64,000 nt of DNA from Escherichia phage vB_EcoS_Uz-1: the sequence record OP312987.1. One strand, written 5' to 3'. Under the pieces are notes generated by a model, which was not told the origin of the DNA, did not search any database, and worked only from the letters and a program-made list of their open reading frames with translations. Made by a program: the position numbers and the translations under genes. Within the stretch, counting starts at the first letter, position 1. Each line of letters starts with the position of its first letter. Positions 7,516 through 62,771 of this stretch are shown here, piece after piece.

Positions 7516-7520
7516 ATGGA

Positions 7521-10598: not shown

Positions 10599-10603
10599 TT
10601 AAA

Positions 10604-20916: not shown

Positions 20917-20987
20917 AGAATGACCCAATCTATCCTCACTGTAAGAAGGCACTCTATAAAGCTACTGGTGGTAAGCTCAATAAAGTA

Positions 20988-23769: not shown

Positions 23770-24029
23770 GTATTGGTGATGTAATTAAACACCAGGATGG
23801 TATGAAGACGAACCAAGGTGCTTCACCTGTTGGTGCATTCCAAATTAACCAAGCTACTCTGAAAGACTTCGCTCCTAAAGTTCTTGGTTCAGATTGGCAA
23901 AGCCAGCCTCTTTCTCCTGAGAACCAGGATAAGATTGGTAAGGCTATCTTTGAGGCCCGTAAGAATGGCAACCTTAAAGATACCTGGGCTGCACTTCCTA
24001 ACTCTACCCAGGTGCTTATAAGGATATGA
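23766..24029 (+). CDS. hypothetical protein
   Basis: 87-aa ORF, ATGA start-stop overlap with neighbours on both sides. Confidence 0.45.
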   Translation: MSIGDVIKHQDGMKTNQGASPVGAFQINQATLKDFAPKVLGSDWQSQPLSPENQDKIGKAIFEARKNGNLKDTWAALPNSTQVLIRI

Positions 24030-24862
24030 CTTGGGAACAGATTAAACCTGTTATTGCTCAAGCCGAGGTGGGAGCTGACCCACTCGCTATGGTTCAGAAT
24101 AATCAAGGTAATCAGGCAGTATCTACTCTGGCTCAGGGTATGATTGGTACACGTTCTATGCAGGATAACACCGGTAGTCTTAACACTGACTTCCTTGGTA
24201 CTGTCACTGATAATACCCCAGTAGGTGAGATTGCTAACCGTTTGTTGGAAGGTGACTTTAAAGGTGCTGACCGTAACTGGGTACTGAACCGACTGAATGA
24301 TATTTCTCAACGTGGGAATATGTCACCAGCTATGGCTGCTGCTGTTATGCAACGTGCACAGACCGGTGTTCCAGAAGGTTATATTAGTCGTGCTATTGAT
24401 GCAGTTAACCCATTCATTACCAATGAAGCTGGTAATGGTATGCGTCTTAATGACCGTCTGGTAGATCAGTTAATTGAGGGTGTACAACGTGGTGAACCAC
24501 TGGAAGGTAGTGTGCGTAATCTTGGACGTGCTCAAGCTATGCAGAATATTCAGGCAGCACAGACTGCTTATGATGCTGCTGTAGCTGCACTGACAAATAC
24601 CCAGAACAAGATTAACACTGGACAAACTGGACTTACTGCACTGTTACCTGCACGTCAGGAAGCTGTTACTAAAGCTGCTGCAATGCTTCAAGCTGCCCAA
24701 GCTCAAGTACAGGCTGACCCAGCTAACCTGGCTCCAAGAGGTTTTCAGTCTCAGGCTAGTGTGGACAGGGCACGAGCCAAGGAAGATGAAGAACGTGCTG
24801 CACGATACTTACGTCAGGCACAAGGTTTGCCTGAGTATATGCAACCAAGACAAAATCGGTAA
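24026..24862 (+). CDS. hypothetical virion protein
   Basis: 278-aa ORF, ATGA overlap with upstream gene, followed by a strong terminator. Confidence 0.55.
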   Translation: MTWEQIKPVIAQAEVGADPLAMVQNNQGNQAVSTLAQGMIGTRSMQDNTGSLNTDFLGTVTDNTPVGEIANRLLEGDFKGADRNWVLNRLNDISQRGNMSPAMAAAVMQRAQTGVPEGYISRAIDAVNPFITNEAGNGMRLNDRLVDQLIEGVQRGEPLEGSVRNLGRAQAMQNIQAAQTAYDAAVAALTNTQNKINTGQTGLTALLPARQEAVTKAAAMLQAAQAQVQADPANLAPRGFQSQASVDRARAKEDEERAARYLRQAQGLPEYMQPRQNR

Positions 24863-41693: not shown

Positions 41694-43586
41694 TTATTTG
41701 CCAGCGTAGCGTTTAGCCACGGTGACCATTACGGTTGCATTCAATTCATCATCAGGTAATGGATTAGCCAGCTTCTTATTGAATGAGTGGACGGCTTGCT
41801 GTACTTGAGCAAAGTCCCAACCACTGTCAACCAATGCCAGTGCGTACTTAATCATTTGATTATTACGATTACCGGAGGCAATACGACTAGCGAACCAACG
41901 CTCCAGATTATCCAACGACTGTACTTCCTTCATCTGGTTCTGGAACTGCTCGTTCTTACTAGTACGAGGAATAAAGTCACGCACATCTAACAGATTTGCA
42001 TCAAGGTTGTAATGATAAGAACCAGTCTCACAGGACATCCACTTCTTGGCTCGTTGGTTAGCTGACTCATCTGTTTCGAATGGTAGCCAAGCCATAACGT
42101 TATTCATGAACTCTTTGTATTCCTCTGTATCGAGGTGTAACTCATAGTTCATTGGAATAATCAGACGGAAGCGGTTCTCTTCATCAGTATGACGCTTGGT
42201 GGTATAGGTCATGAACTTATATTCCTTCATCAGTTCATGGCACGTATGCAGTGGTACTCCACCATCACAGTCAATAACAATCATGTTAAATCCTGGGATA
42301 ACGTTCTCTTCAGAACGATGCCCATTCTTCATGTGATGGTTTACCCAGTGCATACCGGGAGCTTGGGTTAATACATGCAACTGGTCGAACGGTACGCGTT
42401 CACCAATGTAGTCATAAGCAAAGCTATCACTATATGCCACTATCATCTCATTGATGTCAGTCTCTTTAAGAGTTTCACCACGGAAGAACTCAATACCCTC
42501 ATTGAAGGTCTTCTTAATGATGATGTGCTGTTTGTAACCCCATGCAGTAGCAAGAGTCATCATTTCATTACGAGCTGCATTACCACTCTTATAGAATGGT
42601 AAAGACTCCAGCAAGTCAGCATGAGTTACTTCTTTACCTACGGAGGCAATGTACTTAGCCAGCTTCACATAGGCTTTTTCACGATTAAGGATTGTCTGGA
42701 ATGCTGCCCCAGATTCCTCTACAAGCAGAATTGCTTGTTTAAGGTGAGCCATCTCAATAAATGAACTCTGGTCAACAAATGCCAGTGCACCTGCCAGCTT
42801 AAGAGCTTTGAAGTAACGGTGGGAGATTTCAGCTTTACGAATCTCTTCGTGGTCAGCCATAGCTTCTGCTTGTTTCTCACAATCAATTTTGTAAGTAATC
42901 AGGGCAATACCTACAGCATCTTCCACAATCATCTTAAAGCCAAACAAGTTTGGGTCAGCCAGACTATGGAAGTGGTTAGCCCATTTACCAAGAGACTGTA
43001 CGTTATCCTGTTTAATCAGGTTACGGTAGATTTCTTCTGGGGTTAGTGTTGCATGTGCTCGTTTGTCTAAATGCCCGATGGCAAACAAACAACGACGTGC
43101 ATAACCTGTATCAAGGAAGTCATAGAACTGGTCCTCAGTCTGACCACCATCCAGCAGTTTACTCGGAGTACCAAACAACAGCAGGTTAGTTGGAGTCTTA
43201 CCGTCCAGTTCTTCACCACGAACGCTTTCAGCAGTATTCTTGGTCAGCTTCTGCTTAACCTTACCCTGGTCATATAGCTCCAGAAACAGAGTTAATACAT
43301 CAGAGTTAGCCAACAGATTTGAACCAATTTCATCAATTTGAAGATTGATTGAACCACATCCAGCCATTAACAGTTTATGACGTAGCTGTTTAACTGCTGG
43401 TGGAGTACCTGAGTCAAACGTAAACGGATATGCTCCGGCACGTTTATATTCTGCTTCAACTTTATCAAACTCTTCCTGCTGGTCAGTACCTTGACGTGCA
43501 GAGCGTTCGTTAGCAATCTTCCATAGACGGTCATTTGCAATGACGGGCATGGTGTCTTCCATAAAACGTTTACGGAAGCCAGTCAT
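41694..43586 (-). CDS. DNA primase-like protein (AEP-type motif in C-terminal half)
   Basis: 630 aa; Walker B-like LQIDEIGS in the N-terminal part, hhhDxD-like NMIVIDCDGG in the C-terminal part; start overlaps upstream ORF stop (ATGA). Confidence 0.5.
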   Translation of the reverse strand: MTGFRKRFMEDTMPVIANDRLWKIANERSARQGTDQQEEFDKVEAEYKRAGAYPFTFDSGTPPAVKQLRHKLLMAGCGSINLQIDEIGSNLLANSDVLTLFLELYDQGKVKQKLTKNTAESVRGEELDGKTPTNLLLFGTPSKLLDGGQTEDQFYDFLDTGYARRCLFAIGHLDKRAHATLTPEEIYRNLIKQDNVQSLGKWANHFHSLADPNLFGFKMIVEDAVGIALITYKIDCEKQAEAMADHEEIRKAEISHRYFKALKLAGALAFVDQSSFIEMAHLKQAILLVEESGAAFQTILNREKAYVKLAKYIASVGKEVTHADLLESLPFYKSGNAARNEMMTLATAWGYKQHIIIKKTFNEGIEFFRGETLKETDINEMIVAYSDSFAYDYIGERVPFDQLHVLTQAPGMHWVNHHMKNGHRSEENVIPGFNMIVIDCDGGVPLHTCHELMKEYKFMTYTTKRHTDEENRFRLIIPMNYELHLDTEEYKEFMNNVMAWLPFETDESANQRAKKWMSCETGSYHYNLDANLLDVRDFIPRTSKNEQFQNQMKEVQSLDNLERWFASRIASGNRNNQMIKYALALVDSGWDFAQVQQAVHSFNKKLANPLPDDELNATVMVTVAKRYAGK

Positions 43587-43903
43587 GAACCCGTCTTCGA
43601 TGATATTACTGAGTGACCTTTACCGAAACCAGATGTAGCCAACGCTATAGCGTAGATGTTTACCGGCAGGTCACCACGGTCTTTAGTTACGATGGTTGCA
43701 CCCATGCAGGATGCCATTTTAGCCAAGAAGTAGGCTACTTCGACACGGAAGAATCCCCGGTCATTGTTCTGGGTTTTATTGCAGAGCACATCTACGATTT
43801 CTTCAATCGCTGGATGGTGCACTACTCCGGTAAGGTCAATACTCATGATGGAAAATATCTCTCTCTTTGTTTGCAAATGGTCGCGACAGGGCAGTATAAA
43901 CAA
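43583..43903 (-). CDS. small hypothetical protein, possibly the N-terminal segment of the primase gene
   Basis: 106-aa ORF ending ATSGFGKGHS..., ATGA overlap with the primase ORF. Confidence 0.4.
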   Translation of the reverse strand: MFILPCRDHLQTKREIFSIMSIDLTGVVHHPAIEEIVDVLCNKTQNNDRGFFRVEVAYFLAKMASCMGATIVTKDRGDLPVNIYAIALATSGFGKGHSVISSKTGS

Positions 43904-44823
43904 CGCTTAACCTGCCCCTCCACGACCTTGATAGCACCCTTGCCACCTTTTTCAGCCATGAAGATACGGGCAGATGCCATATCGTCAAAGTTTTTGGTAC
44001 TTCTGGCTCCAGGCACATCTACCTTAGAAGCATCAGAGAAGTATTTGAATTGTGGCTCTGTTCGCCACAACTCCTCGTCAGTACATTCAGGAATTTCCTC
44101 TTCAGGAGCATCCCAGTACTTTTCGATGAGGTGAATCTTCTCTTCCACCCAACGTTCAGTCTTCTCGACAGATAGCAGCGGAATATCCTTATGCATAATA
44201 CGATTAGCAGGATAGTTCGGGTTGCTATTAGCCATGTGTTTCATGAAGTCAGTGAAGATGTAGTTAATACGGATTACATCCTCCGTAATGATGTCGTTAT
44301 GAATCCAACGGTACAAGCTGCCTTGCATCTTGTGTTCATCATCACGGGAACCGGCAACCCAGGAATAGGTTGAGGTAGACTTAAAGTCTTGCAACAGACC
44401 TTCCGTTACGATGTCGAACTTACCACCGATAGTCCAACCCTTAACTACCCTGGTTCCACGTTGTTCAATGTAGATTGGGATAAGGTCTGGGTTAGCATCA
44501 AAGTCTGCTTTGGTTGGGTTAATGACTACTGCATCAATGACTCGCTGAGGATAGCCTAGTTTCTTCAATGCAGTCTTATGCCCCAGCTTCCAGGCTTTCT
44601 CAATAGAATCATGCAAGCCAGTACCCATTGATGTGGAGACGAAATCCATAACATCAATGGATTGTTCACTGAGATCTACGCGATGCTTCATGACGATTTG
44701 CTTAATGGGTTTAAGCAATGTAGTAGCAGACAAGTACTTAGGATTGTCTACATAATCATACTCGTCATGTAATAGCCATACAGCTAGTGCAAGACTAACG
44801 TCGTGTTTGTTGGTAAGTTTCAT
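43843..44823 (-). CDS. PD-(D/E)XK nuclease, Cas4-like exonuclease with C-terminal Cys cluster
   Basis: GKFDIVTEG...QDFK nuclease-like motifs and C-terminal C-x2-C-x5-C (KRCLYCPVATICK); 326 aa. Confidence 0.5.
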   Translation of the reverse strand: MKLTNKHDVSLALAVWLLHDEYDYVDNPKYLSATTLLKPIKQIVMKHRVDLSEQSIDVMDFVSTSMGTGLHDSIEKAWKLGHKTALKKLGYPQRVIDAVVINPTKADFDANPDLIPIYIEQRGTRVVKGWTIGGKFDIVTEGLLQDFKSTSTYSWVAGSRDDEHKMQGSLYRWIHNDIITEDVIRINYIFTDFMKHMANSNPNYPANRIMHKDIPLLSVEKTERWVEEKIHLIEKYWDAPEEEIPECTDEELWRTEPQFKYFSDASKVDVPGARSTKNFDDMASARIFMAEKGGKGAIKVVEGQVKRCLYCPVATICKQRERYFPS

Positions 44824-45317
44824 AACAGTCCCAATTGCTTATTAGTTTTAGCAAACTCACCATAATGAGTTATAGCAGCTTCATCATAGAGAACAGCAGC
44901 TTCTCTTGGGTCATCTGTAAAACCTAATGTAATTGGTTTACTGTTAACCCAAATAGTTGCTCTGTATTTACCTAAATTCTTTGAAAAGGATACCCCCTTA
45001 AATCCAGATGTGTTTGTTTTAGATAAAACAGCACTCTGGTTATTCTGCTTGTGGGTCGCTTCTCTGAGGTTATCTATCCAGTTGTGATGGCGAATATTGT
45101 CCTTATGGTCAATCCTATCCGTAGGCCATACACCGTGCACATAGAACCATGCAAGGATATGCCCATAGTACAACACACTATCTACACGGAGTTGAACGTA
45201 ACCACTCTTCATTAGGTAACCAGATACCTTTCCGGTATTCCTACGAGTAAAAATCCCGGAAATAGGGTCATAACTAACAAGCTGTAAAAGCCTGTCATGG
45301 GCAATCCTCTGTTTCAT
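44820..45317 (-). CDS. HNH homing endonuclease with AP2-like DNA-binding domain
   Basis: HNH motif IDHKDNIRHHNWIDNLREATHKQN followed by GFKGVSF...YRATIW...LGFTDDPREAAVLYDEAA; 165 aa; flanked by a duplicated fragment of the downstream gene. Confidence 0.85.
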   Translation of the reverse strand: MKQRIAHDRLLQLVSYDPISGIFTRRNTGKVSGYLMKSGYVQLRVDSVLYYGHILAWFYVHGVWPTDRIDHKDNIRHHNWIDNLREATHKQNNQSAVLSKTNTSGFKGVSFSKNLGKYRATIWVNSKPITLGFTDDPREAAVLYDEAAITHYGEFAKTNKQLGLL

Positions 45318-45324
45318 AATTAGT

Positions 45325-45392
45325 TACTCGTCATGCAATAGCCATACAGCCAGGGCCAGTGATACATCATGGTTGTTGGTTATCTTCATTAG
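45325..45392 (-). repeat. duplicated 5' fragment of the exonuclease gene (direct repeat with 44757..44823)
   Basis: About 77% identical over 64 nt to the first 64 nt of the exonuclease gene, first 34 nt nearly identical; encodes MKITNNHDVSLALAVWLLHDE-stop versus MKLTNKHDVSLALAVWLLHDEYDY... Confidence 0.7.
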
Positions 45393-45865
45393 TAAGTAAT
45401 CCTGTATCTGTGAACCCAGTTCCACTTAATTTCACTTAGCTGATTGAAGTTATACGAGTAAATTTCATCTCGTTCATCTTTATAAACAATCTCAATGAAT
45501 GAAAATTCTTTAGTGAAGTGAGGTTTACCATTGTTTGTATGGTGCCAATAACTACCAACGGTATTTACATTCGTAGCAGGATCCGGAAATAACTCACTAG
45601 CTAACTTCTCTTTAGCGAGAATACGATTAGCGTAATGAACCAGCTTCTCAGCATCATACACCGAAGAGTTTCCTGGTTTACCATTACCCATACGGGCAGC
45701 AGCATTTCGCCATAGAGCCTTAAAGGCACAACCTTCATCGAAGGTCATGCCCAGTGCCTGGATAATATCCTCACACTCTGCTTGGTATGGCTCTTGCTCT
45801 TTCCGTTGGGGGTTCTTAACTGGTACTACATACCAGTTATTCAATCCACCGGAGAGCTTAGTCAT
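45389..45865 (-). CDS. hypothetical protein
   Basis: 158-aa ORF; its stop overlaps the ATG of the duplicated exonuclease fragment (TAATG). Confidence 0.55.
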   Translation of the reverse strand: MTKLSGGLNNWYVVPVKNPQRKEQEPYQAECEDIIQALGMTFDEGCAFKALWRNAAARMGNGKPGNSSVYDAEKLVHYANRILAKEKLASELFPDPATNVNTVGSYWHHTNNGKPHFTKEFSFIEIVYKDERDEIYSYNFNQLSEIKWNWVHRYRITY

Positions 45866-46170
45866 TATTCCCCCTTGGGAATCATGTTTGCCTGGAACTC
45901 TGGTTCAGACATCAGACCCAGGTTGTTAATGGACAGATAAACAATGTCTTTCAAATCAACCGAAGTGTCGAAACGCTGGTCCAGACTAATTTTAAGAGAG
46001 TGATTGGCACGGGCCAAATCTTTATAGGTCACATGAGGCTCGTCAGTGAGCAGCATTGTGTTCATAGTAAGCAGGGAGCCATCATCAGCTTTGGGAAGCT
46101 GGAAGATTACCTGTGCTGCTACCATCCAATGATATTTTCTGACAACGGTTTCTTTAGTACTTTTAGTCAT
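45865..46170 (-). CDS. hypothetical protein
   Basis: 101-aa ORF directly downstream of the DNA polymerase gene. Confidence 0.5.
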   Translation of the reverse strand: MTKSTKETVVRKYHWMVAAQVIFQLPKADDGSLLTMNTMLLTDEPHVTYKDLARANHSLKISLDQRFDTSVDLKDIVYLSINNLGLMSEPEFQANMIPKGE

Positions 46171-46661
46171 GCGAATGCCTTTTGAATTATTTGATGAACT
46201 TCATCTGGGGTAGCGTGATTTGGAATTTCAATCTCGTTAGCCCACGTTGGATAAAACAAGGATAGTTCCCCACCCAAACCAACTTCTGGATGAGCAATAT
46301 CAGGATGGTCTTGCCAGTTAACGGCTTCAACCAAGTGCTTGTTCGTATACTGTAAGGTATCCATGTTGTCACGGATCATGAAGTATTGGGCATCATGAAT
46401 GTGAATACAAGGACGGATATCTAACCTGAACTCACTGGTTCTGACTTTACGCATAAACTCTGAGCCAGCACGGTTATTAAGTAGACACCAGCTTTGACCT
46501 AATGCATTACCAGCAGTTCTGCCTTCAGCTTCTGCTTCATACGGAGTCTTACATGTCCCACGTAATACCTGAGCCAGTAAAGGAGTACGCACTCTTAAAC
46601 CAAATGCAGCAGTTACATAACCAGTCTTAGCAGCTTCGTCTAGCTTAGCCTGAACCCACAA
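46167..46661 (-). CDS. DNA polymerase family A, C-terminal fragment
   Basis: ...GYVTAAFGLRVRTP ... AEGRTAGNALGQS ... IHIHDAQYF resemble the Pol I C-terminal region and motif C; frame is open upstream to about 46739. Confidence 0.8.
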   Translation of the reverse strand: MWVQAKLDEAAKTGYVTAAFGLRVRTPLLAQVLRGTCKTPYEAEAEGRTAGNALGQSWCLLNNRAGSEFMRKVRTSEFRLDIRPCIHIHDAQYFMIRDNMDTLQYTNKHLVEAVNWQDHPDIAHPEVGLGGELSLFYPTWANEIEIPNHATPDEVHQIIQKAFA

Positions 46662-46669
46662 ATCACTAA

Positions 46670-47122
46670 CTACATAGAGATCGTGATAACGTTTCTCCGT
46701 AGTTTTAGCCTTCTCTTCGGAGAAGCCACAGTTTTCATTAAGCCCATGTAAGTACCACCATAGGTAAGCAGGAAGGTTGGAGCCTTCGAGTCACTACGTA
46801 ATGATTTGTACTTATGCTGAATGGAATTAATGGATTCTACTGTGTCTTCTATGTCTGGCATCTGCTCACCAAAATAAGCATATGCACGGAGACTGTGACC
46901 ATCATAGCCATCGGTATATACCTTAAGCTTCTGCGGGTCTTTAGTAGTTAAAGCTGAGATACGGTCTTCAAGGCTTGCAAAGTCCAGTCCACAAAATATC
47001 CAACCTGGTGGTGCTTCGAAGCATTTCTTAATCTTCTTGGCGTATTTGGAACCACTGGGGATGGTCTGTAGATTAGGCTCGGACGCTGAGAGACGTCCTG
47101 ATACTGTGCCTCCAAATTGAGG
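46670..47122 (-). CDS. DNA polymerase family A, middle fragment (motifs A and B)
   Basis: Hand translation of a second frame: PQFGGTVSGRLSASEPNLQTIPS ... CGLDFASLEDRISA ... KAPTFLLTYGGTYMGL; the ORF track shows only its last 63 codons (46670..46861). Confidence 0.7.
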   Translation of the reverse strand, partial: PQFGGTVSGRLSASEPNLQTIPSGSKYAKKIKKCFEAPPGWIFCGLDFASLEDRISALTTKDPQKLKVYTDGYDGHSLRAYAYFGEQMPDIEDTVESINSIQHKYKSLRSDSKAPTFLLTYGGTYMGLMKTVASPKRRLKLRRNVITISM

Positions 47123-48633
47123 TTACCGAACAGGTAGTGCCATCCATCTGGTCCAGGTTGTGCATTACGGAAAGCTGGGATGAATGAAGTGATGATCTTA
47201 TCCACCAGCTTATAGTCGATAAGTGCATTGAGCAGTTCCTTAACATCTTCACTCTGCGTATGTGTACGCAGTGCTTTAATAGTGTCACCGTCAGTAGCAG
47301 GTTGCTTGCTCTTAGTAAGACCAAGAACCGGTAAGCCGATGTAGTCAAATAACAATTTCTGTAATTGTGGACCAGAGTTAGGATTAAACTCTATGTCACA
47401 ATCAGCCAACGTTACCTGCTTCTTCTTAAGCTTGGCATTCTTATCGTCTACCCATTCCTGACGAAGCATCAGGGTGAAGTTCTTCATGAGCTTAGACTCA
47501 CGAATAGTTTTCAGAGCCTGGTTCCTGTCAGTTTCCATTTCTTCAGCTACTTGGTTAACGGTTTCCATATTCATGGGCATACCGGTTAACTGCATCTGAA
47601 TAATGTCTTCGCAGGCTGGTTTAAAGATGTTGTTATAAACATCTAGTTGGTTATCAGCTACCAGGGTATCCCAGTGTTTCTCGTAGGTGTACCAGGTACA
47701 CAAACCATCAATAAGGTTGTATCGTAACAGTTGCTCATTAGGAATGAGACGAATGTCTTTAATATCATCCTGAGCATAGTTACCAGCATACTCCTGAGCC
47801 TGCTCTTTTAGACTAAGGTGATTACCAGCACAACTGTTAGTAGCTAAATAAGTAATTAATTTAGTACAGTCCCAGTTACGCAGCATGATGTCCATGCCAT
47901 GCAGTAAGCCTCCAGTATCAATCAGGTTATCCATGAATAACTGATAAATAAGTATGTACACATCATAACTAATGTTGTGATACATCTGCCGTTGGGTGTA
48001 CTTAATGAAGAACTCACGGAGAAGATTTCGAACAATATCATTACGATTGATTCTCCCATAAGGTGCTTCAGTAGCTCCCCTAATTGGCTCGTAATCCACA
48101 TTAAAGGCTATGCCCTGTGTCTTACTCCAACAGAACGTAATTGTTCCTATACCTGCGTTATAGTGCTTTAAACCGAATGCCTCGATGTCTATAGCCAGAG
48201 GCTTATTCATCTCAAGCAACTGGTCTAGCCAGGCTTTAATCTTTTCTGGAGTATCTGGATAGGCTTCAAACTCAATGATTCCCTGACCTGGTTCAGCATA
48301 CTGCCCACGTATGTGGTTTAGTAATGCATCCATACCCTGAGCAATTTTGGCTCTCACTACAGGTGGGTCATAAAAGACCTGTCTGTAACTAGGCGTATAG
48401 ATAACTTTCTGTTTACCCCATACTGAATCACAAACATAGCCGAGATTAGCCTCTGCTTTAGCCTCTTTAGTCAGTATTTTGAAGTAATCAGAATCGGTGC
48501 AGATAATGTACTGGGTCTCTGCATCATCCAGTACTTGCTGCAATTCCTGCTTTATGAACTCCTTAATCTCTCTTGCTGGGGTCTTCTTCTTGCCCGGAGC
48601 AGAGTGAAGTTCAATAAAGATGAAGTCTTCCAT
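46948..48633 (-). CDS. DNA polymerase family A, N-terminal fragment with 3'-5' exonuclease motifs
   Basis: LAIDIEAFGL (Exo I-like) and HNISYDVY (Exo II-like) in a 561-aa ORF; authentic sequence ends near 47100; a strong SD plus ATG at 48670 joins this frame if the T3 run at 48658-48660 is one base longer. Confidence 0.8.
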   Translation of the reverse strand: MEDFIFIELHSAPGKKKTPAREIKEFIKQELQQVLDDAETQYIICTDSDYFKILTKEAKAEANLGYVCDSVWGKQKVIYTPSYRQVFYDPPVVRAKIAQGMDALLNHIRGQYAEPGQGIIEFEAYPDTPEKIKAWLDQLLEMNKPLAIDIEAFGLKHYNAGIGTITFCWSKTQGIAFNVDYEPIRGATEAPYGRINRNDIVRNLLREFFIKYTQRQMYHNISYDVYILIYQLFMDNLIDTGGLLHGMDIMLRNWDCTKLITYLATNSCAGNHLSLKEQAQEYAGNYAQDDIKDIRLIPNEQLLRYNLIDGLCTWYTYEKHWDTLVADNQLDVYNNIFKPACEDIIQMQLTGMPMNMETVNQVAEEMETDRNQALKTIRESKLMKNFTLMLRQEWVDDKNAKLKKKQVTLADCDIEFNPNSGPQLQKLLFDYIGLPVLGLTKSKQPATDGDTIKALRTHTQSEDVKELLNALIDYKLVDKIITSFIPAFRNAQPGPDGWHYLFGNLNLEAQYQDVSQRPSLIYRPSPVVPNTPRRLRNASKHHQVGYFVDWTLQALKTVSQL

Positions 48634-48752
48634 GCTTAGGTCATAAGGCAGCAGGTAGGTTTAATCATCTCCTCCCTTCGGATTTGATGACCGAGGATAG
48701 CAATAGGATACTTACCAGTATCCTGAGAGGTGATGTAACGCATAGCTTTACC

Positions 48753-51480: not shown

Positions 51481-53529
51481 TTACTTAACGTGCTTTGACA
51501 GCTTAGTAGCCAATTTGCTCTCTTCTTCAGTCAGACCCATTGCAGCTGAAGACTTCTTAGCTGCACGCTTATAGTCTTGTAGGGCATGACCTTTCTGATA
51601 GTCAGAGATAGGACTATCTTCAGGATGTACGCAGATTATCATGGCATGTTTACCAGTAATGGCAGGCTTATATTTAGTGGGTAGAACGGTCTTAGCTTGC
51701 TTCACTGGTTTTGGTTTGCCGATGGGTTTAGCTGTGTAAGTTGTACGTACATCAGCAATCTTAGCCACTACATCGGAACCAACTCCTAAAGCAGCCCATG
51801 GCTTACGGGCCTTGCCTCGCATTTCCACAAGCAAATCAGCAGCAGCTAATTTATCTTCTGGGGTTGTTGCATTGAGGAACTCTTTGACCAGTTCCTGGAT
51901 TTGTTCTTTCACAGTAGGAGCCTTCTTAATAACGGGTTTAAGGTCAGTAGCCTTCACTGGTTCAGAAGCTACAGTTTCATTCAGTGACTCTTCCATATTC
52001 AGTGCTTCTTTATTAGCAACTGTACGGAATTGTTCTACAGAACCAGATGTGAGATTAGTATATTTGAGGTTAGTACCACGATGTCCACCAACCATAACAA
52101 GTGTGGTAGGTGAACTATGGTTCCCAACGATGGCATCATTAAGCAACTTCTTACCTACTTCTGTCTTAGACAGATAGATACCGTTGTTAACGTTGCAACG
52201 TTCCTCTTCCGGCAGTTCAGCAATAATGTGATATGCAGATACACGCATCTTATTAGTGCTGTACTGAGGAACAGCAAATACATCTTCTGGTGCTACTTTA
52301 CCAAGGATAGTTACGTTACCACCGAAGCTACGAATGTAGCTCATGGATGCTACATGCAGACCATTAGAACAGTCCTGGCGACGGTCAGGGTCTACCAGGT
52401 CTTCGCGTACCTGCACTTTACATCCTACCCATTGACGAATGTTGCCTGAGTGACAATCAACGAATACACGTTTACCATTCTCTAGACTTCTATACTTCAG
52501 ACGTTTCAGGAACAGGATTGAACCATCATCAGCAATAGGTAGCTCAGCAGTTTCCATGAACTTCATCAGGTCTTCAACTGAGTGTAGACGGTCTTTAATT
52601 ACTGGAGCCAGACGCTCAAGGAACTTAGTAAAGCCCTTGTAGTCTTTCAGTTGGGCAGACTGACGCAAGTGACGTTGCAGGTTCTCAACTCCAGGGATAA
52701 CCCCATCGTTGGTAACAGCAACAACCACTTCATCTTCCTTCACATCAGTGTGGAAGTTAGCGTCATCAGTACTAATAGCACCCAATGCAGCCAGTTTCTC
52801 AGAAGCAGCAGCCAGCTTATCCTGATTCGTAACTTTAACCTCTTCTACATAAGGCAGTGGAGTTTCATCGCGACTGGTAAATACAATGTGTACTCCTTTG
52901 ATATGTTTGGCTTGTTTAGCAAACTCACTCATTTCATCATCGGATACTGCACGAATTGCAATAGGCCATTCTTGCTTAAGAATGCTGTCAGTATGCTTAT
53001 AACTCCAACACAGTACATCATTAATAAAACGAACCAGTGCAGGATGGTTATGGTCCTTGTCCCAACCAGTAACCCACATCAGATTGTCACGTTTATCGTA
53101 ACAACCGTCTGCTACTGTTACTTCTGGTTCATTAGCCTGGACAGCCAGGAAGGTATCCATAGCTCTAGACACCAGCGTCTTAGTGGGATTTCCCAGCTTA
53201 ATATCTGAGACGATTCGGGCTGGTTGAGTACTTGTACCATCTTCGAAGAACTCTTTGAGTTTAGCCTTAGCTACCTTGAAGAAACGGACGAATCCGTTAG
53301 TGTTCTTCTCTGCTTCCAGATATTCAGTACGCAGGTTTACTTCTGGTGCAATGTTTACTTCTATCTGGTCTTTGGTAGTTCCCAGACCTTTGGTTTGTGC
53401 TTCAGATACAATACGAGCAACCCGTGGGTCGCTCTGAGGATATACAATCGTGGAGCCATCAGGCTTCCACAGTGTAAGGTTACGACTGTCAACTGCCAGT
53501 GCGATGATAGAAATCAGTTCGATTTTCAT
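51481..53529 (-). CDS. large hypothetical protein, rIIB-like candidate by position
   Basis: 682-aa ORF downstream of the rIIA-like gene; no motif verified. Confidence 0.4.
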   Translation of the reverse strand: MKIELISIIALAVDSRNLTLWKPDGSTIVYPQSDPRVARIVSEAQTKGLGTTKDQIEVNIAPEVNLRTEYLEAEKNTNGFVRFFKVAKAKLKEFFEDGTSTQPARIVSDIKLGNPTKTLVSRAMDTFLAVQANEPEVTVADGCYDKRDNLMWVTGWDKDHNHPALVRFINDVLCWSYKHTDSILKQEWPIAIRAVSDDEMSEFAKQAKHIKGVHIVFTSRDETPLPYVEEVKVTNQDKLAAASEKLAALGAISTDDANFHTDVKEDEVVVAVTNDGVIPGVENLQRHLRQSAQLKDYKGFTKFLERLAPVIKDRLHSVEDLMKFMETAELPIADDGSILFLKRLKYRSLENGKRVFVDCHSGNIRQWVGCKVQVREDLVDPDRRQDCSNGLHVASMSYIRSFGGNVTILGKVAPEDVFAVPQYSTNKMRVSAYHIIAELPEEERCNVNNGIYLSKTEVGKKLLNDAIVGNHSSPTTLVMVGGHRGTNLKYTNLTSGSVEQFRTVANKEALNMEESLNETVASEPVKATDLKPVIKKAPTVKEQIQELVKEFLNATTPEDKLAAADLLVEMRGKARKPWAALGVGSDVVAKIADVRTTYTAKPIGKPKPVKQAKTVLPTKYKPAITGKHAMIICVHPEDSPISDYQKGHALQDYKRAAKKSSAAMGLTEEESKLATKLSKHVK

Positions 53530-53533
53530 CAGA

Positions 53534-53779
53534 TTAGTTACCTTTCAGTTTATTTAGACGATTACGGTAGAGGGACTTAAACCCAGGAATATCCTCTGGA
53601 TTCTTCTTAAGGTGTTTGACCAAACTACCTAAGTCCAGCGTCTGTAGGATGTCATTTTTATTCCAGCTATAACTGAATAATTCTTTGTAATCATTAAGTA
53701 TTTTAAAGTACTTATGATTACGCGGATTAGTCATTATTGCATATGGCTCTAAGTCATCCACTGACTTAATACAACCCAT
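53534..53779 (-). CDS. hypothetical protein
   Basis: 81-aa ORF between the rIIA-like and 682-aa genes. Confidence 0.45.
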   Translation of the reverse strand: MGCIKSVDDLEPYAIMTNPRNHKYFKILNDYKELFSYSWNKNDILQTLDLGSLVKHLKKNPEDIPGFKSLYRNRLNKLKGN

Positions 53780-53880
53780 TTCAACAAGTTTTTCTTTGTT
53801 GTCGTGTGGTCGATTCCGTAGAAAGTCATATGCCCATTCATATTCTGGTTTAAAAATCAGATTCTGTAATGGTTTGAAGG

Positions 53881-55263
53881 TTAGACCAGTATGTCTAGGA
53901 TTTCCCAGTATTCCCTGTCATCCAGTCCTACGTATTCCAGAATACCAATACGGTGTTCAGTAACATATTTCTTGAAGCCTTTACTGGTAATAACTGGCAT
54001 CAGCTCCATAAAGCGAACATCATCAATGTGGATAGCACCTCTCCGTTTGGCCTTGTTAGCTTCGATTTGATTACGGCAGACAACAGTCTCTGCTCTCATC
54101 TCATCAGATAACTCATACCATTTCCACATGGTTCCAATTCGAGCAGTTACTGGGCTACCTGAACCAACCTGATTGGCTAGTACGTAGTACTTAGGTTGCT
54201 CTACTTCAACGAAACCAGACTTATCATGGCGACTTGGGTCTGCAAATTCCTTCTGAATATAAGGCTTTGGTTCCCAATCCCCATTTTTATTCCGTATTTG
54301 GGTAGCACCAAGAACTGCATTCAATGAAATCAGAGAATTAGTTTTACCTCCTGCCTTGGTTTTATTGGCAGCGATTGTCTTAGACCGTTTCTCAGCAGCT
54401 ATCTTAGCTTTCTCTCTACGGAAGTTAGTTGGTTTGTCCCACTCATTATATTGAGTAAGGTCGATTACCCGATAACCCATAGCAGTGAACTTAGCCACAG
54501 CTTCTTCTGCTGCACCCTTCTTAGGTCCAACGACGTGAACAAAAGCTGTACGCTCCAGGTCACCTCGATCGTACTCAGGGAAGTACGAGAAAGAGTCTGC
54601 ACAGTCAGACAAACGTCGGGTAACTACAACGTTTTTGGTAGTGAATATGCCAATACTTTGGTGGGAGTTATTGTATATCCTAAAGTAGTCAGTAAGTTTA
54701 CCTTTTACCAAGTCAACACGGTTACCTTGATTCATTATGTAACCAGACCACTTAATACCAGAGGTTTTCAAAGCAGCCAGCTGAGGTAAGTGCAGATGGC
54801 GATATACTAATTCCGAGAATGGGGAGTATGTACTTTCTTCACGAGTATCCTTAAGAGCACGCATAGCCTTACCATACAGTTTCTTAAGACCTGCGTATTC
54901 AGGACGAGCTAATAATGCCTTATTGGATAAATTACGCCAGTGCTTGATGTAATGCTTACGTTGCTTAGCCCACAAACTAGAGGACATATAGCGTTGAACA
55001 GTTCTGTCTGTAACAGCACCCAGGAATGATGGATACTCCCAGAAGCGAGTAGAGGATTTAGAAGCATATTCTTCAACCTGCTTAATGGCTTCAGGAATCT
55101 TAGCCTTAATCTCTTTCTCCATACGGTCTACTAAATCTACACATAGAGTAGTAATACCATCGTCGGTTAACTTCTGGTTAGACAGCGTTTCTCGACTAGG
55201 AGCAATAGCTAAAGTGTCTGGTGCAGCCTGAACTACTAGATTAGAAGCACCAATAATATTCAT
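53881..55263 (-). CDS. rIIA: rIIA-like protein, C-terminal fragment
   Basis: 460-aa ORF starting 17 nt after the GHKL-ATPase ORF in another frame with no SD; its frame is open ~20 codons upstream into the other ORF's end. Confidence 0.55.
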   Translation of the reverse strand: MNIIGASNLVVQAAPDTLAIAPSRETLSNQKLTDDGITTLCVDLVDRMEKEIKAKIPEAIKQVEEYASKSSTRFWEYPSFLGAVTDRTVQRYMSSSLWAKQRKHYIKHWRNLSNKALLARPEYAGLKKLYGKAMRALKDTREESTYSPFSELVYRHLHLPQLAALKTSGIKWSGYIMNQGNRVDLVKGKLTDYFRIYNNSHQSIGIFTTKNVVVTRRLSDCADSFSYFPEYDRGDLERTAFVHVVGPKKGAAEEAVAKFTAMGYRVIDLTQYNEWDKPTNFRREKAKIAAEKRSKTIAANKTKAGGKTNSLISLNAVLGATQIRNKNGDWEPKPYIQKEFADPSRHDKSGFVEVEQPKYYVLANQVGSGSPVTARIGTMWKWYELSDEMRAETVVCRNQIEANKAKRRGAIHIDDVRFMELMPVITSKGFKKYVTEHRIGILEYVGLDDREYWEILDILV

Positions 55264-55280
55264 GAAGTTGAGGATAAGGC

Positions 55281-56099
55281 CTACAGCTTCTTCACTAGCT
55301 GGGCTGGATACAATTGGTACATTACATTACCGTAGCGAACGTATATGTTACTGCTACCCATATAGCCTTGATACCATCTATCAGACATATCATATGAACC
55401 AGGTTCAAATGGCATGCCTAGTGTATCCAGTAGAGTGTAGTCGCCTTGTTGAATACTATTACTCTCGTCTGTTCTAATGAGTTTGGGAGTACTTAGCTCA
55501 GCTTTAATTTCACCGTTAAACACAATTGATTTGATGTAATGAATAAAGGTATTTAAATCATGTTTGCCTAACTGGAATTTAACTTCCAGACCAGATTCCT
55601 CAGTAGGAATACCAGTAATAATAGGAACAATACCAGGCTTACCATCATTCTCAATTGCAGCCTTAGCTACGTTATATACAGACATCTTCCCTTGGTTCCA
55701 TGATGTAACCTGGAAGCTATCTGTATAAGCGAATGGGGATTTACATCCCAGACCAAAGCCACCAGTAACACTACTGTTGGACTTCTTGGTAGATGCACCA
55801 TAGACACCATAAATGGAGCCAATGAGTTCATCTTGGATACCGTTACCGAAGTCACGGAAGGTAATAAAGTTGTCAGTATCAATGGTAATACGGATAGGAG
55901 TATCAGTCTTACCTGCTTCAATATGGGCATCCCAACTGTTACAGATAGTTTCACGGACTACTGCCAGAGTAGGGTTGTTATACAAGGAAGTACTTAATAC
56001 ATGAAAGAATGCCGGGTCATCAGAGATGCCAAAGGCGATTGCTTCTTTGCCACCCAGTGTCGCTGAAGTGGCTGATTGATTGGTATCTGCAACTAACAT
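55281..56099 (-). CDS. rIIA: rIIA-like protein, N-terminal GHKL (Bergerat-fold) ATPase fragment
   Basis: ExxxNxxDA-type VRETICNSWDAH, DxGxG-type FRDFGNGI and Gly-rich VTGGFGLGCKSPF motifs, as in GyrB/Hsp90/MutL-type ATPase domains found at rIIA N-termini. Confidence 0.65.
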   Translation of the reverse strand: MLVADTNQSATSATLGGKEAIAFGISDDPAFFHVLSTSLYNNPTLAVVRETICNSWDAHIEAGKTDTPIRITIDTDNFITFRDFGNGIQDELIGSIYGVYGASTKKSNSSVTGGFGLGCKSPFAYTDSFQVTSWNQGKMSVYNVAKAAIENDGKPGIVPIITGIPTEESGLEVKFQLGKHDLNTFIHYIKSIVFNGEIKAELSTPKLIRTDESNSIQQGDYTLLDTLGMPFEPGSYDMSDRWYQGYMGSSNIYVRYGNVMYQLYPAQLVKKL

Positions 56100-56126
56100 T
56101 TATTTACTCTCCAGTTTAAATGTTGC

Positions 56127-56375
56127 TTACATTAGAACTTGTTTACACTTATCAAAAATAGCTTTACGAAGTTCAGCTTCTTCCCGTGGTTCATCATTAG
56201 GATGGTGACCTACAGGACTATTTTGAAAAGCATTCATTAGGAATAAGACCTGATACTCGGTTAAACCATTAATCTGAATGCTATACGTTTTCTCTGAGGC
56301 GATATTTACATTAGCCATTGCGTTTACCTGCCATTGCTTGTAATACAAACACAGCCATATCTGATGCCATGTCAT
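56127..56375 (-). CDS. small hypothetical protein
   Basis: ORF track 82 aa; probable start at internal Met (MANVNIAS...) near 56318 because of overlap with the upstream ORF. Confidence 0.4.
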   Translation of the reverse strand: MTWHQIWLCLYYKQWQVNAMANVNIASEKTYSIQINGLTEYQVLFLMNAFQNSPVGHHPNDEPREEAELRKAIFDKCKQVLM

Positions 56376-56685
56376 CTGTTATATCGTTGACCGTTCCATA
56401 TGGTAGTGGGCCGTTCTCTTCCCAGTTATCTAACGTGTTTTGTACTTCAGCTAAACCAGCCTGAATCATTTCCTTGCTTGGTTCCAGCCATAACTTACGT
56501 TCCTCTGCTAGTGCAGCGATGCATATGCATAGAGAGGCAATGTTAGCTGGACAAGCAGCAATATCACCAGTTACTGCAATCTCACTGAGTGGGACAGCCT
56601 TACCGGTTTTACTATGAATTACTTCAGGGTTAATCATGAATTTGCTCCAGGTTATGGGCAGGAATAGGGAAGCATGGATAGTCAC
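56311..56685 (-). CDS. hypothetical protein
   Basis: 124-aa ORF. Confidence 0.45.
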   Translation of the reverse strand: MTIHASLFLPITWSKFMINPEVIHSKTGKAVPLSEIAVTGDIAACPANIASLCICIAALAEERKLWLEPSKEMIQAGLAEVQNTLDNWEENGPLPYGTVNDITDDMASDMAVFVLQAMAGKRNG

Positions 56686-56842
56686 CGGTAGGGTCCAGTG
56701 TTACTGACACATGCAGTGTATTTGTCATTTGGGTTAGCATCTGAGCAGCATTGAAATCATCCTGGATACAGGCATATACAATGTCGCCCTTCTCACCCTC
56801 ACACATTACGGGTGTGTCTTTGATACGGTATTTAGCAGGCAT
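56630..56842 (-). CDS. small hypothetical protein
   Basis: 70-aa ORF immediately downstream of a minus-strand terminator. Confidence 0.4.
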   Translation of the reverse strand: MPAKYRIKDTPVMCEGEKGDIVYACIQDDFNAAQMLTQMTNTLHVSVTLDPTGDYPCFPIPAHNLEQIHD

Positions 56843-56867
56843 ATGCCCTCCTGAAAGAGTTAATTGA

Positions 56868-56897
56868 AACCAAAAAAGACCTCCCGGAGGAGGTCTT
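56868..56897 (-). terminator. intrinsic terminator
   Basis: AGACCTCC-CGGA-GGAGGTCT hairpin followed on the minus strand by TTTTTTGG. Confidence 0.7.
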
Positions 56898-56901
56898 AGG
56901 T

Positions 56902-57117
56902 TTACTTACGATTTTGTTCTACAAATCGTATCATTTGTTTTTTCACTTCTTCTTGCTCACGAATTGCTTCGTAGTCACGAGCAAAGTAGTAAACACACCA
57001 TAAACCAATCTCGCTTACAAAGAACAGAATACTAGCTCGAATGAACTGCATATCTGTTTCTACGACAAAGGCAACTTTGTATGCGTAGGTCAGTGTTAGT
57101 AGGGTACTAATTAGCAT
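56902..57117 (-). CDS. small membrane protein
   Basis: 71 aa with two hydrophobic segments. Confidence 0.5.
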   Translation of the reverse strand: MLISTLLTLTYAYKVAFVVETDMQFIRASILFFVSEIGLWCVYYFARDYEAIREQEEVKKQMIRFVEQNRK

Positions 57118-57136
57118 TGCGTATAGAGCTAGTTTT

Positions 57137-58081
57137 TCATTCTGTAATTGTTTCTCCGGGGATTAGTTTACGGAATTGGATGAAATCCAGTAAGTTGCCA
57201 GAATACAGCTTACCTTCACGGTCCATAGATGTAACACCCTGTTCCCATGTTAATGGGTTCTGGTTGTTCACATACTTATCACCAACAGTCATAGGAGTTG
57301 CCTGGTGTTCGGTAGGGGATGCATGAATAGGTTGGTTTTCAACTAACTTAGCAAACAATCCTAAGTCCTCTTCAATAGTAGATGGACGGCCTTCGAAATT
57401 GTTGTAAGAAGCACGAGCACAACGAGCAGCACTTACTTTAAGAAGTAAGCCATACACTTCTTCACGACTTGGCTCATCACGAGTAATTCGCTGATGTTTG
57501 CAGTAATTATAAGCCCCGACACGATCAATATGAGCAATATACGGTAAATGCCATTCCCCTTGTGGGAGTGCTCTCGTAGTGCTTTCATTGTGTGCCTTAC
57601 GCATTGCTTGAGCCAGTTCACGAATCTCTGGTTGAGCGTCCTCATGGTCACGCAATCCATAGAAGTTAGTCCAGCTAGTTGAAGTTACCACTACACGGAT
57701 ATGTGTGAATGGTTCCAGAATACGGTTAACAATCTGCTTATGTACTTGACCACGACGAAGCATTTCTGCATAGGTAGCAGCACTGGACGCAGCCTGATTC
57801 CAGATAAAGATTGCATCTACGTTGGTCTTCGGACTGAGTTCCTCAAATGCCTGCATACCCTTCTGGTTCTTACCCCAGTGACTTGGCATCACTGGTTCAT
57901 TACGAACCTGTTCGATGAACTTAGAAGTAGGGATAGCACGACTACTTGAAGCATTTCGGTTGAATACACGGTGAGTCATAAACTCACTGTGGATGAATCG
58001 GGGGTAAACCAATTCAAAGGTAGTAATACGAGTTCCTGTTTCTGGGTGAACGGAATCTGCAATGACAGTTGCCTTAATCAT
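57137..58081 (-). CDS. thyX: ThyX-like (flavin-dependent thymidylate synthase family) protein, tentative
   Basis: Segment TTFELVYPRFIHSEFMTHRVFNRNASSSR resembles the ThyX core around the RHR...S.R signature as recalled, with T in place of the first R; 314 aa. ThyA motifs absent. Confidence 0.45.
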   Translation of the reverse strand: MIKATVIADSVHPETGTRITTFELVYPRFIHSEFMTHRVFNRNASSSRAIPTSKFIEQVRNEPVMPSHWGKNQKGMQAFEELSPKTNVDAIFIWNQAASSAATYAEMLRRGQVHKQIVNRILEPFTHIRVVVTSTSWTNFYGLRDHEDAQPEIRELAQAMRKAHNESTTRALPQGEWHLPYIAHIDRVGAYNYCKHQRITRDEPSREEVYGLLLKVSAARCARASYNNFEGRPSTIEEDLGLFAKLVENQPIHASPTEHQATPMTVGDKYVNNQNPLTWEQGVTSMDREGKLYSGNLLDFIQFRKLIPGETITE

Positions 58082-60634: not shown

Positions 60635-61234
60635 TTACCTGGCATCTGTCCACCAGCCATTTTCTGGCTTTGCATTGCACGTACTACGTTGTTGACAACA
60701 GCACCCTGGGACTGCCCGGAGTGGGGATTTCATGTCGCCAGCAAGACCTGCTCCAGCACCCCCTGACGGCTTCTGCCTTTTCTGAGGGTTCTTCATCAAG
60801 TCATCGTAGATATCTTCTTCGACCCATCCTTTATATTGAGGGTCTTTGCAAATACCTTTGTCGATACCAGTGAATTTGTAACCATCTTCTTCTAACTGAA
60901 GGTTAATGAAGTGGTCACATGCCTGGTTCCAGACTTCTGGGTCACGGCTTCCACGACGGATGTCATGTAGATATGCCACATGCCAGAGTTCGTGCATTAA
61001 CACTGTTTCTCTTGCGTCTGGACACATCCAGATAAAGAAATCTGGATTGAAATGGAGTTCTATCCCATCGGTACATGCAGTGGGACAATCCTCGCGTTTC
61101 CACGAGAACTTAAGACTACATAGTAATGAACCAAAGAACGCAGCGCTTCGACCTAGGAAAGCCTGAGCTTGAATACGATCATATTCACGCATGAGTTGTT
61201 CATCTGTGAGACTATGCGTAGGTATACTGTTCAT
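60635..61234 (-). CDS. zinc metallopeptidase-like fragment (HExxH), N-terminal part of metallopeptidase-VWA protein
   Basis: HELWHVAYLH motif; C-terminal ~40 aa of the ORF look out of frame (Cys/Gln-rich). Confidence 0.55.
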   Translation of the reverse strand: MNSIPTHSLTDEQLMREYDRIQAQAFLGRSAAFFGSLLCSLKFSWKREDCPTACTDGIELHFNPDFFIWMCPDARETVLMHELWHVAYLHDIRRGSRDPEVWNQACDHFINLQLEEDGYKFTGIDKGICKDPQYKGWVEEDIYDDLMKNPQKRQKPSGGAGAGLAGDMKSPLRAVPGCCCQQRSTCNAKPENGWWTDAR

Positions 61235-61712
61235 TAGGGTGCTCCATGATTGGGGTGATAGCCATACAGTTTTTCAGCCGCTTTTCTGGCGTCTATGGCA
61301 TCTTGCTTGTCTGCAAAAGTGCCCAAACTTACCAGACGTGTTCCATCAGATATAGCTGCATACCAGATGGAATCACGCTTGTGCCAGTACACACCAGTAA
61401 CACCACTGGAATTAGTTACCCGTTTCTTTTGGTTTCTGGTGTTAGTTCTGCTGTCTACTAATCTAAAGTTACTTAGAAGGTTATTAACCCTATTGTGGTC
61501 TAGGTGATCAATCTGCATACCTTTCGGGATAGGTCCATTGTGCATTTCCCATATGACACGGTGCACTTTGTAACTTTTGCCCTTATAGTTGAAGCATAAA
61601 TAACCATCGCTATTTAGATTACCTACCTTTTTCCAGCAATGCCTCTGGAGGCTACTGTAACTTTCCAGAATAGCTCCCCATTTATGTAAACGAGTATGTC
61701 ATTCCAGTTCAT
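61234..61712 (-). CDS. HNH homing endonuclease with AP2-like domain, frame-shifted in this assembly
   Basis: ORF track 61234..61566 has HNH motif IDHLDHNRVNNLLSNFRLVDSRTN and AP2-like tail; the N-terminal ~50 aa (MNWNDILVYINGELFWKV...) lie upstream in another frame from ATG 61712, joined if an A5 run gains one base. Confidence 0.75.
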
Positions 61713-61719
61713 GTTGTGA

Positions 61720-62220
61720 TTATCCGTGAATGTAGCGGGAGATGTTAGCAGCAGCCTTACGCCATTCAGGGGTAGCCTGAAGTTCTGGCAATGCTCTGCC
61801 TACTGTACGAAAGTACAGAATCTTATGAGTGAACGTTTTAAAGCGTTCAATGTACTGAAGAACATCAGCGAAGTTTTCCTCAGTAGTTTTGTTAGCCAGA
61901 TGGTTAACGGTAGCCCAACACAGGTTATTATCTTCCGGTAGTGTACAGCCCATAGGGTCTTTGACTACCTTATCAATCGTAATGATACGATTGTACACCT
62001 GTGTAAATTGAACAAACTCTGTAGCCTTACCAGCAGTAACGTGTCCTGCATAGTAGATAGAATCTTCATCAGGCAGAGCACCTTCAGGACGGTTCTTGAG
62101 GTCTTTGTTAACAAAGTCCCAGGTACGAGGGCAACAGAACGTTTTGTTCTTATGTGCTGGGTCGAAGTCATGCAGATAACCGGGGTTAGCATGTAAGAAT
62201 GCAACCAGACGTTCATCCAT
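61720..62220 (-). CDS. MoxR-like AAA+ ATPase, C-terminal fragment
   Basis: 166-aa ORF overlapping the 3' part of the ATPase ORF in another frame; protein-like sequence. Confidence 0.5.
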   Translation of the reverse strand: MDERLVAFLHANPGYLHDFDPAHKNKTFCCPRTWDFVNKDLKNRPEGALPDEDSIYYAGHVTAGKATEFVQFTQVYNRIITIDKVVKDPMGCTLPEDNNLCWATVNHLANKTTEENFADVLQYIERFKTFTHKILYFRTVGRALPELQATPEWRKAAANISRYIHG

Positions 62221-62771
62221 TGTTGTGGAATCATTACGTCTTCAACAAAGATGTCGAAGTTAAGTTCCATTTCGAAGTGGACAACACGGGACTGCATTGC
62301 AGTACCCAGTGGGTTAACGATGGCACGGTCAGTAGCTTTGTTACCAGCACAGATAATCATCACATTAGGATGAAGTTTTTTCTGACCAGTCATACGGTCT
62401 AGAATCAGTTTATATGCAGCAGCTATTACTTCTTTGCGAGCAGATGGGAACTCATCAAGGAATAAGAGCCAGCCATTATATCCTTCCGGTATTTTATCCC
62501 CTTCAATTGGGAATAAGTCAGCGAATGGAATAAACTCTGCACGGTCACCATTACGGAATGGTAAGCCAGAAAGGTCTTCCGGGGCAGAAGTTGACAGACG
62601 ATGGTCTATCAACTTCATACCAAATTCTTCTGCAATAGAACGAATGATTGCAGATTTACCCATGCCAGGTGATGAAGTCAGGAACGGTACGTTACCTGCT
62701 TTCAAAGCACGGATAATAAAGTTACGAGCTTGACGTGAATTACATACGGTCAAGGAGTCAATGCTTGCCAT
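61965..62771 (-). CDS. MoxR-like AAA+ ATPase, N-terminal part
   Basis: Walker A SSPGMGKSA, Walker B LLFLDEFPSA, ICAGN sensor-like motif; last ~60 aa look out of frame. Confidence 0.7.
   Translation of the reverse strand: MASIDSLTVCNSRQARNFIIRALKAGNVPFLTSSPGMGKSAIIRSIAEEFGMKLIDHRLSTSAPEDLSGLPFRNGDRAEFIPFADLFPIEGDKIPEGYNGWLLFLDEFPSARKEVIAAAYKLILDRMTGQKKLHPNVMIICAGNKATDRAIVNPLGTAMQSRVVHFEMELNFDIFVEDVMIPQQWMNVWLHSYMLTPVICMTSTQHIRTKRSVALVPGTLLTKTSRTVLKVLCLMKILSTMQDTLLLVRLQSLFNLHRCTIVSLRLIR

Follow-up and report, generated by a model that had tools for sequence, protein, structure and literature searches.

Does the rIIA locus of the Escherichia phage vB_EcoS_Uz-1 genome (sequence record OP312987.1) encode a protein that has been divided into separately translated parts, or is it a single gene that only looks divided in the sequence file? 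The window analyzed here, a stretch of 64,000 nucleotides of that record, is assigned by its sequence to an N4-like Gamaleyavirus of the Bp4 species group, and the original prediction had noticed on its minus strand two ORFs, 55281-56099 and 53881-55263, which it read as one rIIA-like protein of about 730 amino acids split between its GHKL ATPase domain and the rest. Both ORFs exist as described, separated by a 17-nt spacer (minus strand), and the frame of ORF 55263-53881 is -1 relative to that of ORF 56099-55281. The view that they belong to a single gene was borne out, because relatives contain a single ORF, but the encoded protein has 855 residues, and the gene lies in three pieces rather than two, since a third fragment and a second 1-nt lesion had been overlooked (Table 1). 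As argued below, we consider it about 90% probable that the locus contains one ordinary 855-aa rIIA gene, which appears as three ORFs through homopolymer under-calls that originated in the sequence record of phage Bp4.

Table 1. Features of the rIIA locus (positions within the 64,000-nt window; all on the minus strand).
Feature	Position	Strand	Remarks
Complete rIIA gene (N4 gp33 homologue)	53534..56099	(-)	2,566 nt here; 2,568 nt (855 aa + stop) in relatives
Fragment 1, 272 aa as called	55281..56099	(-)	True rIIA residues 1-260, then 12 residues read out of frame before a stop
Fragment 2, 460 aa as called	53881..55263	(-)	True coding in its frame from 55317 to 53887, residues 262-738
Fragment 3, 81 aa as called	53534..53779	(-)	C-terminal end of rIIA, residues 775-855
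Apparent intergenic gap, rIIA coding sequence in a third frame	53780..53880	(-)	101 nt; identical to PD38
Shine-Dalgarno sequence GGAGAG of the true rIIA start	56107..56112	(-)	Upstream sequence AACTGGAGAGTAAATAA, then ATG
rIIB gene (N4 gp34 homologue), intact	51481..53529	(-)	phrog_2886 positions 1-551 of 552, E 1.7e-208
Lesion 1, coding-strand CC where PD38, ShWW44 and ECBP1 have CCC	55316..55317	(-)	One base missing, codon 261; alignment
Lesion 2, coding-strand GG where relatives have GGG	53886..53887	(-)	One base missing, codon 738; alignment
GHKL N-box ETICNSWD (ExxxNxxD)	55929..55952	(-)	Residues 50-57; motif scan of repaired protein
GHKL G1 box DFGNG (DxGxG)	55839..55853	(-)	Residues 83-87; motif scan of repaired protein
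GHKL G2 box GGFGLG (GxxGxG)	55746..55763	(-)	Residues 113-118; motif scan of repaired protein

The three fragments match successive portions of the PHROG 2979 profile (phrog_2979, "RIIA lysis inhibitor", 846 positions), namely positions 1-249 for fragment 1 (E 3e-143), 266-733 for fragment 2 (E 5.5e-119) and 775-845 for fragment 3 (E 7e-7), and the consecutive matches of the first two ORFs are, on these profile scores, far beyond what chance would produce. The Bergerat-fold ATPase motifs that had been proposed for ORF 55281-56099 are all present, and fragment 1 also matches the Pfam family PF13589 (HATPase_c_3) over residues 47-155 with 39.6 bits against a cut-off of 25. The comparison with T4 and N4-like rIIA homologues that had been suggested as a check was carried out, and it gave a match of the repaired rIIA with T4 (KJ477686.1) that covers residues 17-326, the N-terminal region only, with 28.8% identity and an E value of 2e-17 in tblastn, and a full-length match with the N4-like family. 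A sequence search of the repaired rIIA against the PDB returned no solved relative at E<=0.01. Judged from these similarities, the gene is an ordinary N4 gp33-type rIIA with a predicted GHKL-type ATPase at its N terminus and a long C-terminal part that is specific to N4-like phages.

To place the lesions, the window was aligned with Bp4, PD38, ShWW44 and ECBP1. The alignment revealed that PD38, ShWW44 and ECBP1 have an extra base at both lesion sites, the coding strand reading GTACCAATTG at lesion 1 in the window versus GTACCCAATTG in PD38 and ECBP1 and GTACCCCATAG in ShWW44, and ATACTGGTCTAA at lesion 2 versus ATACTGGGTCTAA in the relatives. The break had previously been located at a CCC run (55303-55301), but this run is also present in the relatives, and the true lesion is the CC at 55317-55316, 14 nt upstream. 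The overlap of frames that had been noted there, estimated at about 20 codons, was confirmed insofar as the frame of fragment 2 is open upstream of its ATG for 21 codons, where the stop at 55329-55327 closes it, and shares about 15 codons with ORF 1, although the CCC run on which it was centered is not the lesion. Similarly, fragment 3 has an open frame that reaches upstream as far as 53917, and its closest upstream in-frame stop is at 53920-53918.

Addition of one base per site generated an ORF of 2,568 nt encoding 855 amino acids, of which residues 1-850 match positions 1-845 of the 846 of phrog_2979 in one stretch (E 2.1e-297). When the PD38 rIIA protein was compared by tblastn with the window, residues 1-263 were found in frame -3, residues 262-738 in frame -2 with 100% identity, and residues 739-855 in frame -1, also with 100% identity. 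The repaired protein is 99.1% identical by tblastn to that of PD38, from which the window gene differs by the two missing bases and 8 amino acid substitutions, all of which fall within residues 8-111. Moreover, the repair turns the 101-nt "intergenic" segment 53780-53880 into conserved coding sequence, the open frame across it encoding GLTFKPLQNLIFKPEYEWAYDFLRNRPHDNKEKLVE as in PD38.

A first alternative would be that the split is genuine, the ATPase module and the C-terminal parts being separate, independently translated subunits in this lineage, a view that could draw on the three 'rIIA-like' coding sequences, fragment 3 among them, that are annotated in the Bp4 record and on the two annotated in that of CU10EC. 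Nevertheless, inspection of the upstream sequences found no Shine-Dalgarno sequence before the internal ATG at 55263, in agreement with the original prediction, or before the ATG at 53779, so that fragments 2 and 3 lack the ribosome-binding site that the true start at 56099 possesses, and separate subunits would leave 101 nt of conserved coding sequence outside any called ORF. The break at codon 261 is not at a domain boundary, because the block conserved with T4 rIIA spans residues 17-326 and encloses it, and the Pfam match ends well before it at residue 155; hence the proposal that the gene is divided between the ATPase domain and the rest was not upheld.

The distribution of the split among relatives argues in the same direction. 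A tblastn search with the repaired rIIA retrieved 97 phage records at E<=1e-100, all of them covering at least 80% of the protein, and in 57 of the best 60 records rIIA was found in one piece, the exceptions being the two copies of Bp4 (GenBank and RefSeq) and CU10EC. The CU10EC gene was considered as an independently conserved split and rejected, since its break lies elsewhere and the lesion is of another kind, a tandem duplication of 155 nt (gene nt 751-905). The two ORFs are therefore not separately conserved in relatives, only the Bp4 record and CU10EC being also split, and with the split conserved in no relative among the best 60 records we regard independently translated subunits as scarcely credible. 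The Bp4 record (KJ135004.2 / NC_024142.2, EpBp4_0052-0054) has the same three ORF coordinates and the same two lesions as the window, and its fragment 1 (AHN83402.1) differs from that of the window by 37 substitutions and 8 amino acid changes. As the version number.1 of that accession implies an unaltered protein across the versions of the record, the window is probably not an older version of Bp4. In junction scans of IMG/VR and metagenome contigs the deletion was not carried by any independent sequence: the deleted form of both junctions had no exact match in IMG/VR, and when junctions with either CC or CCC were allowed, IMG/VR gave ECBP1 alone, in the intact form, and the metagenome contigs gave nothing. 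When the protein of fragment 1 was looked up by exact match in public assemblies, no record was returned.

The same comparisons bear on the idea of programmed recoding, according to which two -1 ribosomal frameshifts, or transcriptional slippage, would yield full-length rIIA and perhaps shorter products as well. Both shifts are indeed -1, and the downstream frames are open across each junction. However, neither overlap contains an in-phase X_XXY_YYZ heptamer, the sole heptamer, GGGAAAT at 53906 in the second junction, being out of phase, and polymerase slippage requires runs much longer than 2 bases. In addition, none of the 57 single-piece relatives shows the arrangement, not even PD38, only 3 substitutions away from Bp4, and because it is not conserved there is nothing for selection to have shaped. 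Recoding is accordingly given next to no weight here.

To place the rIIA lesions in their genomic context, the length differences along the whole window were examined. The window is in register with Bp4 over its 64,000 nt, with 3,822 substitutions (about 6%) and 0 indels. Between Bp4 and PD38, in contrast, 3 substitutions stand against 39 gap openings over 72.2 kb, that is, indels outnumber substitutions 13 to 1. When compared with PD38, the window presented 36 net 1-nt length differences, and all 36 were deletions in the window. As many as 33 of these 36 net deletions shorten a run that comprises 3 or more identical bases in PD38; such runs make up only 13% of the PD38 bases, and a binomial test, run on 39 events that include 3 compensated ones, gave a p of about 1e-23. 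About 13 of the net length differences are intergenic, and for this reason PD38 cannot simply have been "fixed" by frame-based editing.

The deletions also affect genes other than rIIA. According to tblastn, the DNA polymerase gene lies in 4 pieces in the window, the primase gene in 2 and gp51 in 3, and gp53, the tail fibre gene and gp24 lie in 2 pieces each; the Bp4 record annotates the same genes as split, whereas PD38, a near-identical genome that was sequenced independently of Bp4, has all of them intact. Since vB_EcoS_Uz1 was plaque-purified (PMC9670874), and a plaque-purified viable phage could not carry all of these breaks in essential genes, the set of lesions as a whole is a base-calling artefact. 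The rIIA lesions are among about 34 like homopolymer lesions across the window, a set that also breaks essential genes; the rIIA split is thus part of this artefact and not a property of rIIA, and no separate explanation is needed for it, because the full set of deletions cannot be real in a viable phage.

It could still be argued that the two rIIA frameshifts are genuine, rIIA having been inactivated by two 1-nt deletions as a natural rII-type null or a young pseudogene that would give truncated products or none. T4 rIIA is dispensable on most hosts, and homopolymer runs are natural hot spots for frameshifts. Given that dispensability, the phage would survive a real rIIA null, but not the polymerase breaks. 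The sequence past the breaks is still identical to that of PD38, as it would be after a very recent mutation, and, according to its announcement, Uz1 was assembled de novo into a contig from Illumina reads (PMC9670874). Against this, the two sites lie within a set of 36 one-directional deletions that break DNA polymerase, primase and virion protein genes, the 39 gap openings between Bp4 and PD38 contrast with only 3 substitutions, and the window has the indel state of Bp4 despite a 6% substitution divergence, so that genuine frameshifts would amount to special pleading for 2 of about 34 like lesions. We therefore hold this alternative to be improbable. A little less probable again is its most specific form, in which the stock carries a doubly frameshifted rIIA and grows on its avian-pathogenic E. 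coli host as a natural rII-type null. If true, rIIA would be dispensable on that host. This form presupposes real lesions in rIIA alongside artefacts at the other 32 or so sites.

Inherited under-calls, the explanation that we favor, require a route from the Bp4 record to the window. The vB_EcoS_Uz1 genome (OP312987) was reported to have 72,583 bp, which is exactly the length of Bp4, and a GC content of 43%, to be most closely related to Bp4, PD38 and ECBP1, and to have been processed with Genome Detective (PMC9670874); in agreement with that report, the window has a GC content of 43.4% and its relatives rank in the same order. Outside the blocks of identity described below, the window is about 7.5% diverged, and all of its deletions recur in Bp4, whereas PD38 has none of them. 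Deletions that are common to Bp4 and absent from its near-twin PD38 exclude inheritance by descent and indicate a copied scaffold. In ShWW44, a true relative, several indels of more than one base occur within 5.8 kb, whereas the window is free of indels when compared with Bp4.

The substitutions of the window relative to Bp4 look natural from their positions, with a bias towards the third position of codons (in the virion RNA polymerase gene, 645 of 852), and of 34 deletions, 24 fall within blocks in which the window also carries substitutions of its own. The block 53267-55679 (2,413 nt), which holds both rIIA lesions, is 100% identical to Bp4 and is one of eight such blocks, which may reflect either fill-in from the reference or recombination. 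From the identical length, the identical register and the description of the tool, the deletions apparently propagated through reference-guided assembly.

The sequence of events would then be as follows. Each of two short runs would have been recorded one base short, CCC being read as CC and GGG as GG, the under-calls starting in the GenBank record of Bp4 (KJ135004.2 / NC_024142.2), which would hold about 39 such errors. The window would be the sequence of a roughly 6% diverged phage, built in the coordinate frame of Bp4 with a reference-linking tool, and would have inherited from Bp4 the indel state of the reference. We infer that the extra bases are present in the DNA of the physical phage, which would be expected to make a single rIIA protein with a mass of about 95 kDa, assuming 110 Da per residue. 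A counterpoint is that the Uz1 paper describes a 72,583-bp SPAdes contig obtained from Illumina reads (PMC9670874); taken at face value, such a contig would mean that the deletions had been observed independently, since 3-base runs are rarely under-called by Illumina.

The split is therefore a feature of the sequence file and not real biology, a known gene having been fragmented by inherited homopolymer errors. It has little biological significance and should not be taken as domain-level gene fission, as a pseudogene or as a recoding site. Its practical consequences are wider, since the RefSeq record NC_024142.2 (Bp4) is the exemplar of the species Gamaleyavirus Bp4, and its approximately 39 homopolymer errors fragment at least seven genes and were apparently passed on to at least one later "complete genome" by way of reference-guided assembly. 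Gene-content comparisons, pseudogene counts and protein-family building that make use of these records inherit the false split genes.

The pattern of the errors resembles that of flow-based sequencing (454 / Ion Torrent class), in which homopolymer errors are, as in the window, one-directional 1-base shortenings of runs with 3 or more bases; the likeness extends to both coding and intergenic DNA. As for the gene itself, the repaired protein is colinear from end to end with the N4-like rIIA proteins (N4 gp33; PHROG 2979; PD38 AXY81322.1 and ECBP1 AFR51990.1), and the neighbourhood is also that of N4-like phages, with a gp32 homologue upstream, a thymidylate synthase gene further upstream, and rIIB, co-oriented and found as a single tblastn piece, starting 4 nt downstream of the rIIA stop. 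In the literature, the rIIA family is presented as a counter-defence system that is poorly understood and in which a GHKL N terminus is combined with a variable C terminus (PMC7824862), and in T-even phages the rIIAB operon overcomes RexAB (PMC10312443). In T4, rIIA is required for growth on hosts with RexAB-type exclusion, and its mutants show rapid lysis. By homology with T4 rIIA and rIIB, the two proteins of the window would likewise be predicted to counter RexAB-type abortive-infection systems. The rIIA of the window shares with T4 rIIA the N-terminal GHKL ATPase region and the rIIB partner, and differs from it beyond about residue 330, where the two proteins have no detectable similarity.

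The window could be aligned to the record of Escherichia phage Bp4 (KJ135004.2) in perfect positional register, with 3,822 substitutions and 0 indels over positions 1-64000. Against a background divergence of about 7.5% around them, eight blocks, none shorter than 400 nt, showed 100% identity between the two sequences. In several of them lie modules that are usually variable among relatives, a pattern which suggests that the blocks are reference fill-in of a reference-guided consensus. Most of the rIIB gene (window 51481-53266) encodes a protein sequence with just 88.7% identity to those of PD38 (MH669274.1, a phage record with an intact rIIA gene) and Bp4, and the rIIA segment adjoining this divergent part is 100% identical to both. 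The change takes place abruptly at 53266/53267, within the 5' part of rIIB, and such a sharp switch points to a mosaic junction or, alternatively, to the edge of a filled-in stretch.

Comparison with PD38 revealed that, besides rIIA, six genes of the window are present in 2-4 frame-shifted pieces each, because homopolymer runs are 1 base shorter in the window than in PD38.

Blocks identical to Bp4 and genes in frame-shifted pieces relative to PD38
Feature	Window position	Content
Identical block	5902-11543	tail fibre/spike
Identical block	35698-36318	
Identical block	37465-38250	
Identical block	44774-45610	HNH endonuclease
Identical block	53267-55679	
Identical block	56116-57142	
Identical block	61200-61722	
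Identical block	62503-64000	
Gene in pieces	46170-48743	DNA polymerase
Gene in pieces	41697-43846	primase
Gene in pieces	22903-24859	gp51
Gene in pieces	19780-22430	gp53
Gene in pieces	5719-8432	tail fibre
Gene in pieces	61723-62771	gp24
Run-shortening sites in these genes, among others	46735, 47113, 48662, 43607, 23557-24009, 20881, 7419, 62218	

Over 72.2 kb, alignment of the Bp4 record with that of PD38 shows 39 gap openings but only 3 substitutions; the PD38 record is, in effect, the Bp4 genome without the errors. These errors and the split-gene annotation persist in the RefSeq exemplar of Bp4 (NC_024142.2).

Run-length differences also adjoin the rIIA finding at the thyX stop (A5 versus A6, window 57137-57138) and in an intergenic run (A6 versus A7/A8, window 56877). 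At both runs genuine relatives differ among themselves, with ShWW44 having A5 at the former and ECBP1 and ShWW44 having 7 at the latter, so that a difference in run length need not be an error in every case.

In phage vB_EcoP_CU10EC (PQ435408.1, 301-3020), rIIA is annotated as two CDS, 'TOP6B' and a hypothetical protein, because of a 155-nt tandem duplication (gene nt 751-905) whose length is not a multiple of 3. This duplication may be genuine or may stem from a misjoin during assembly.
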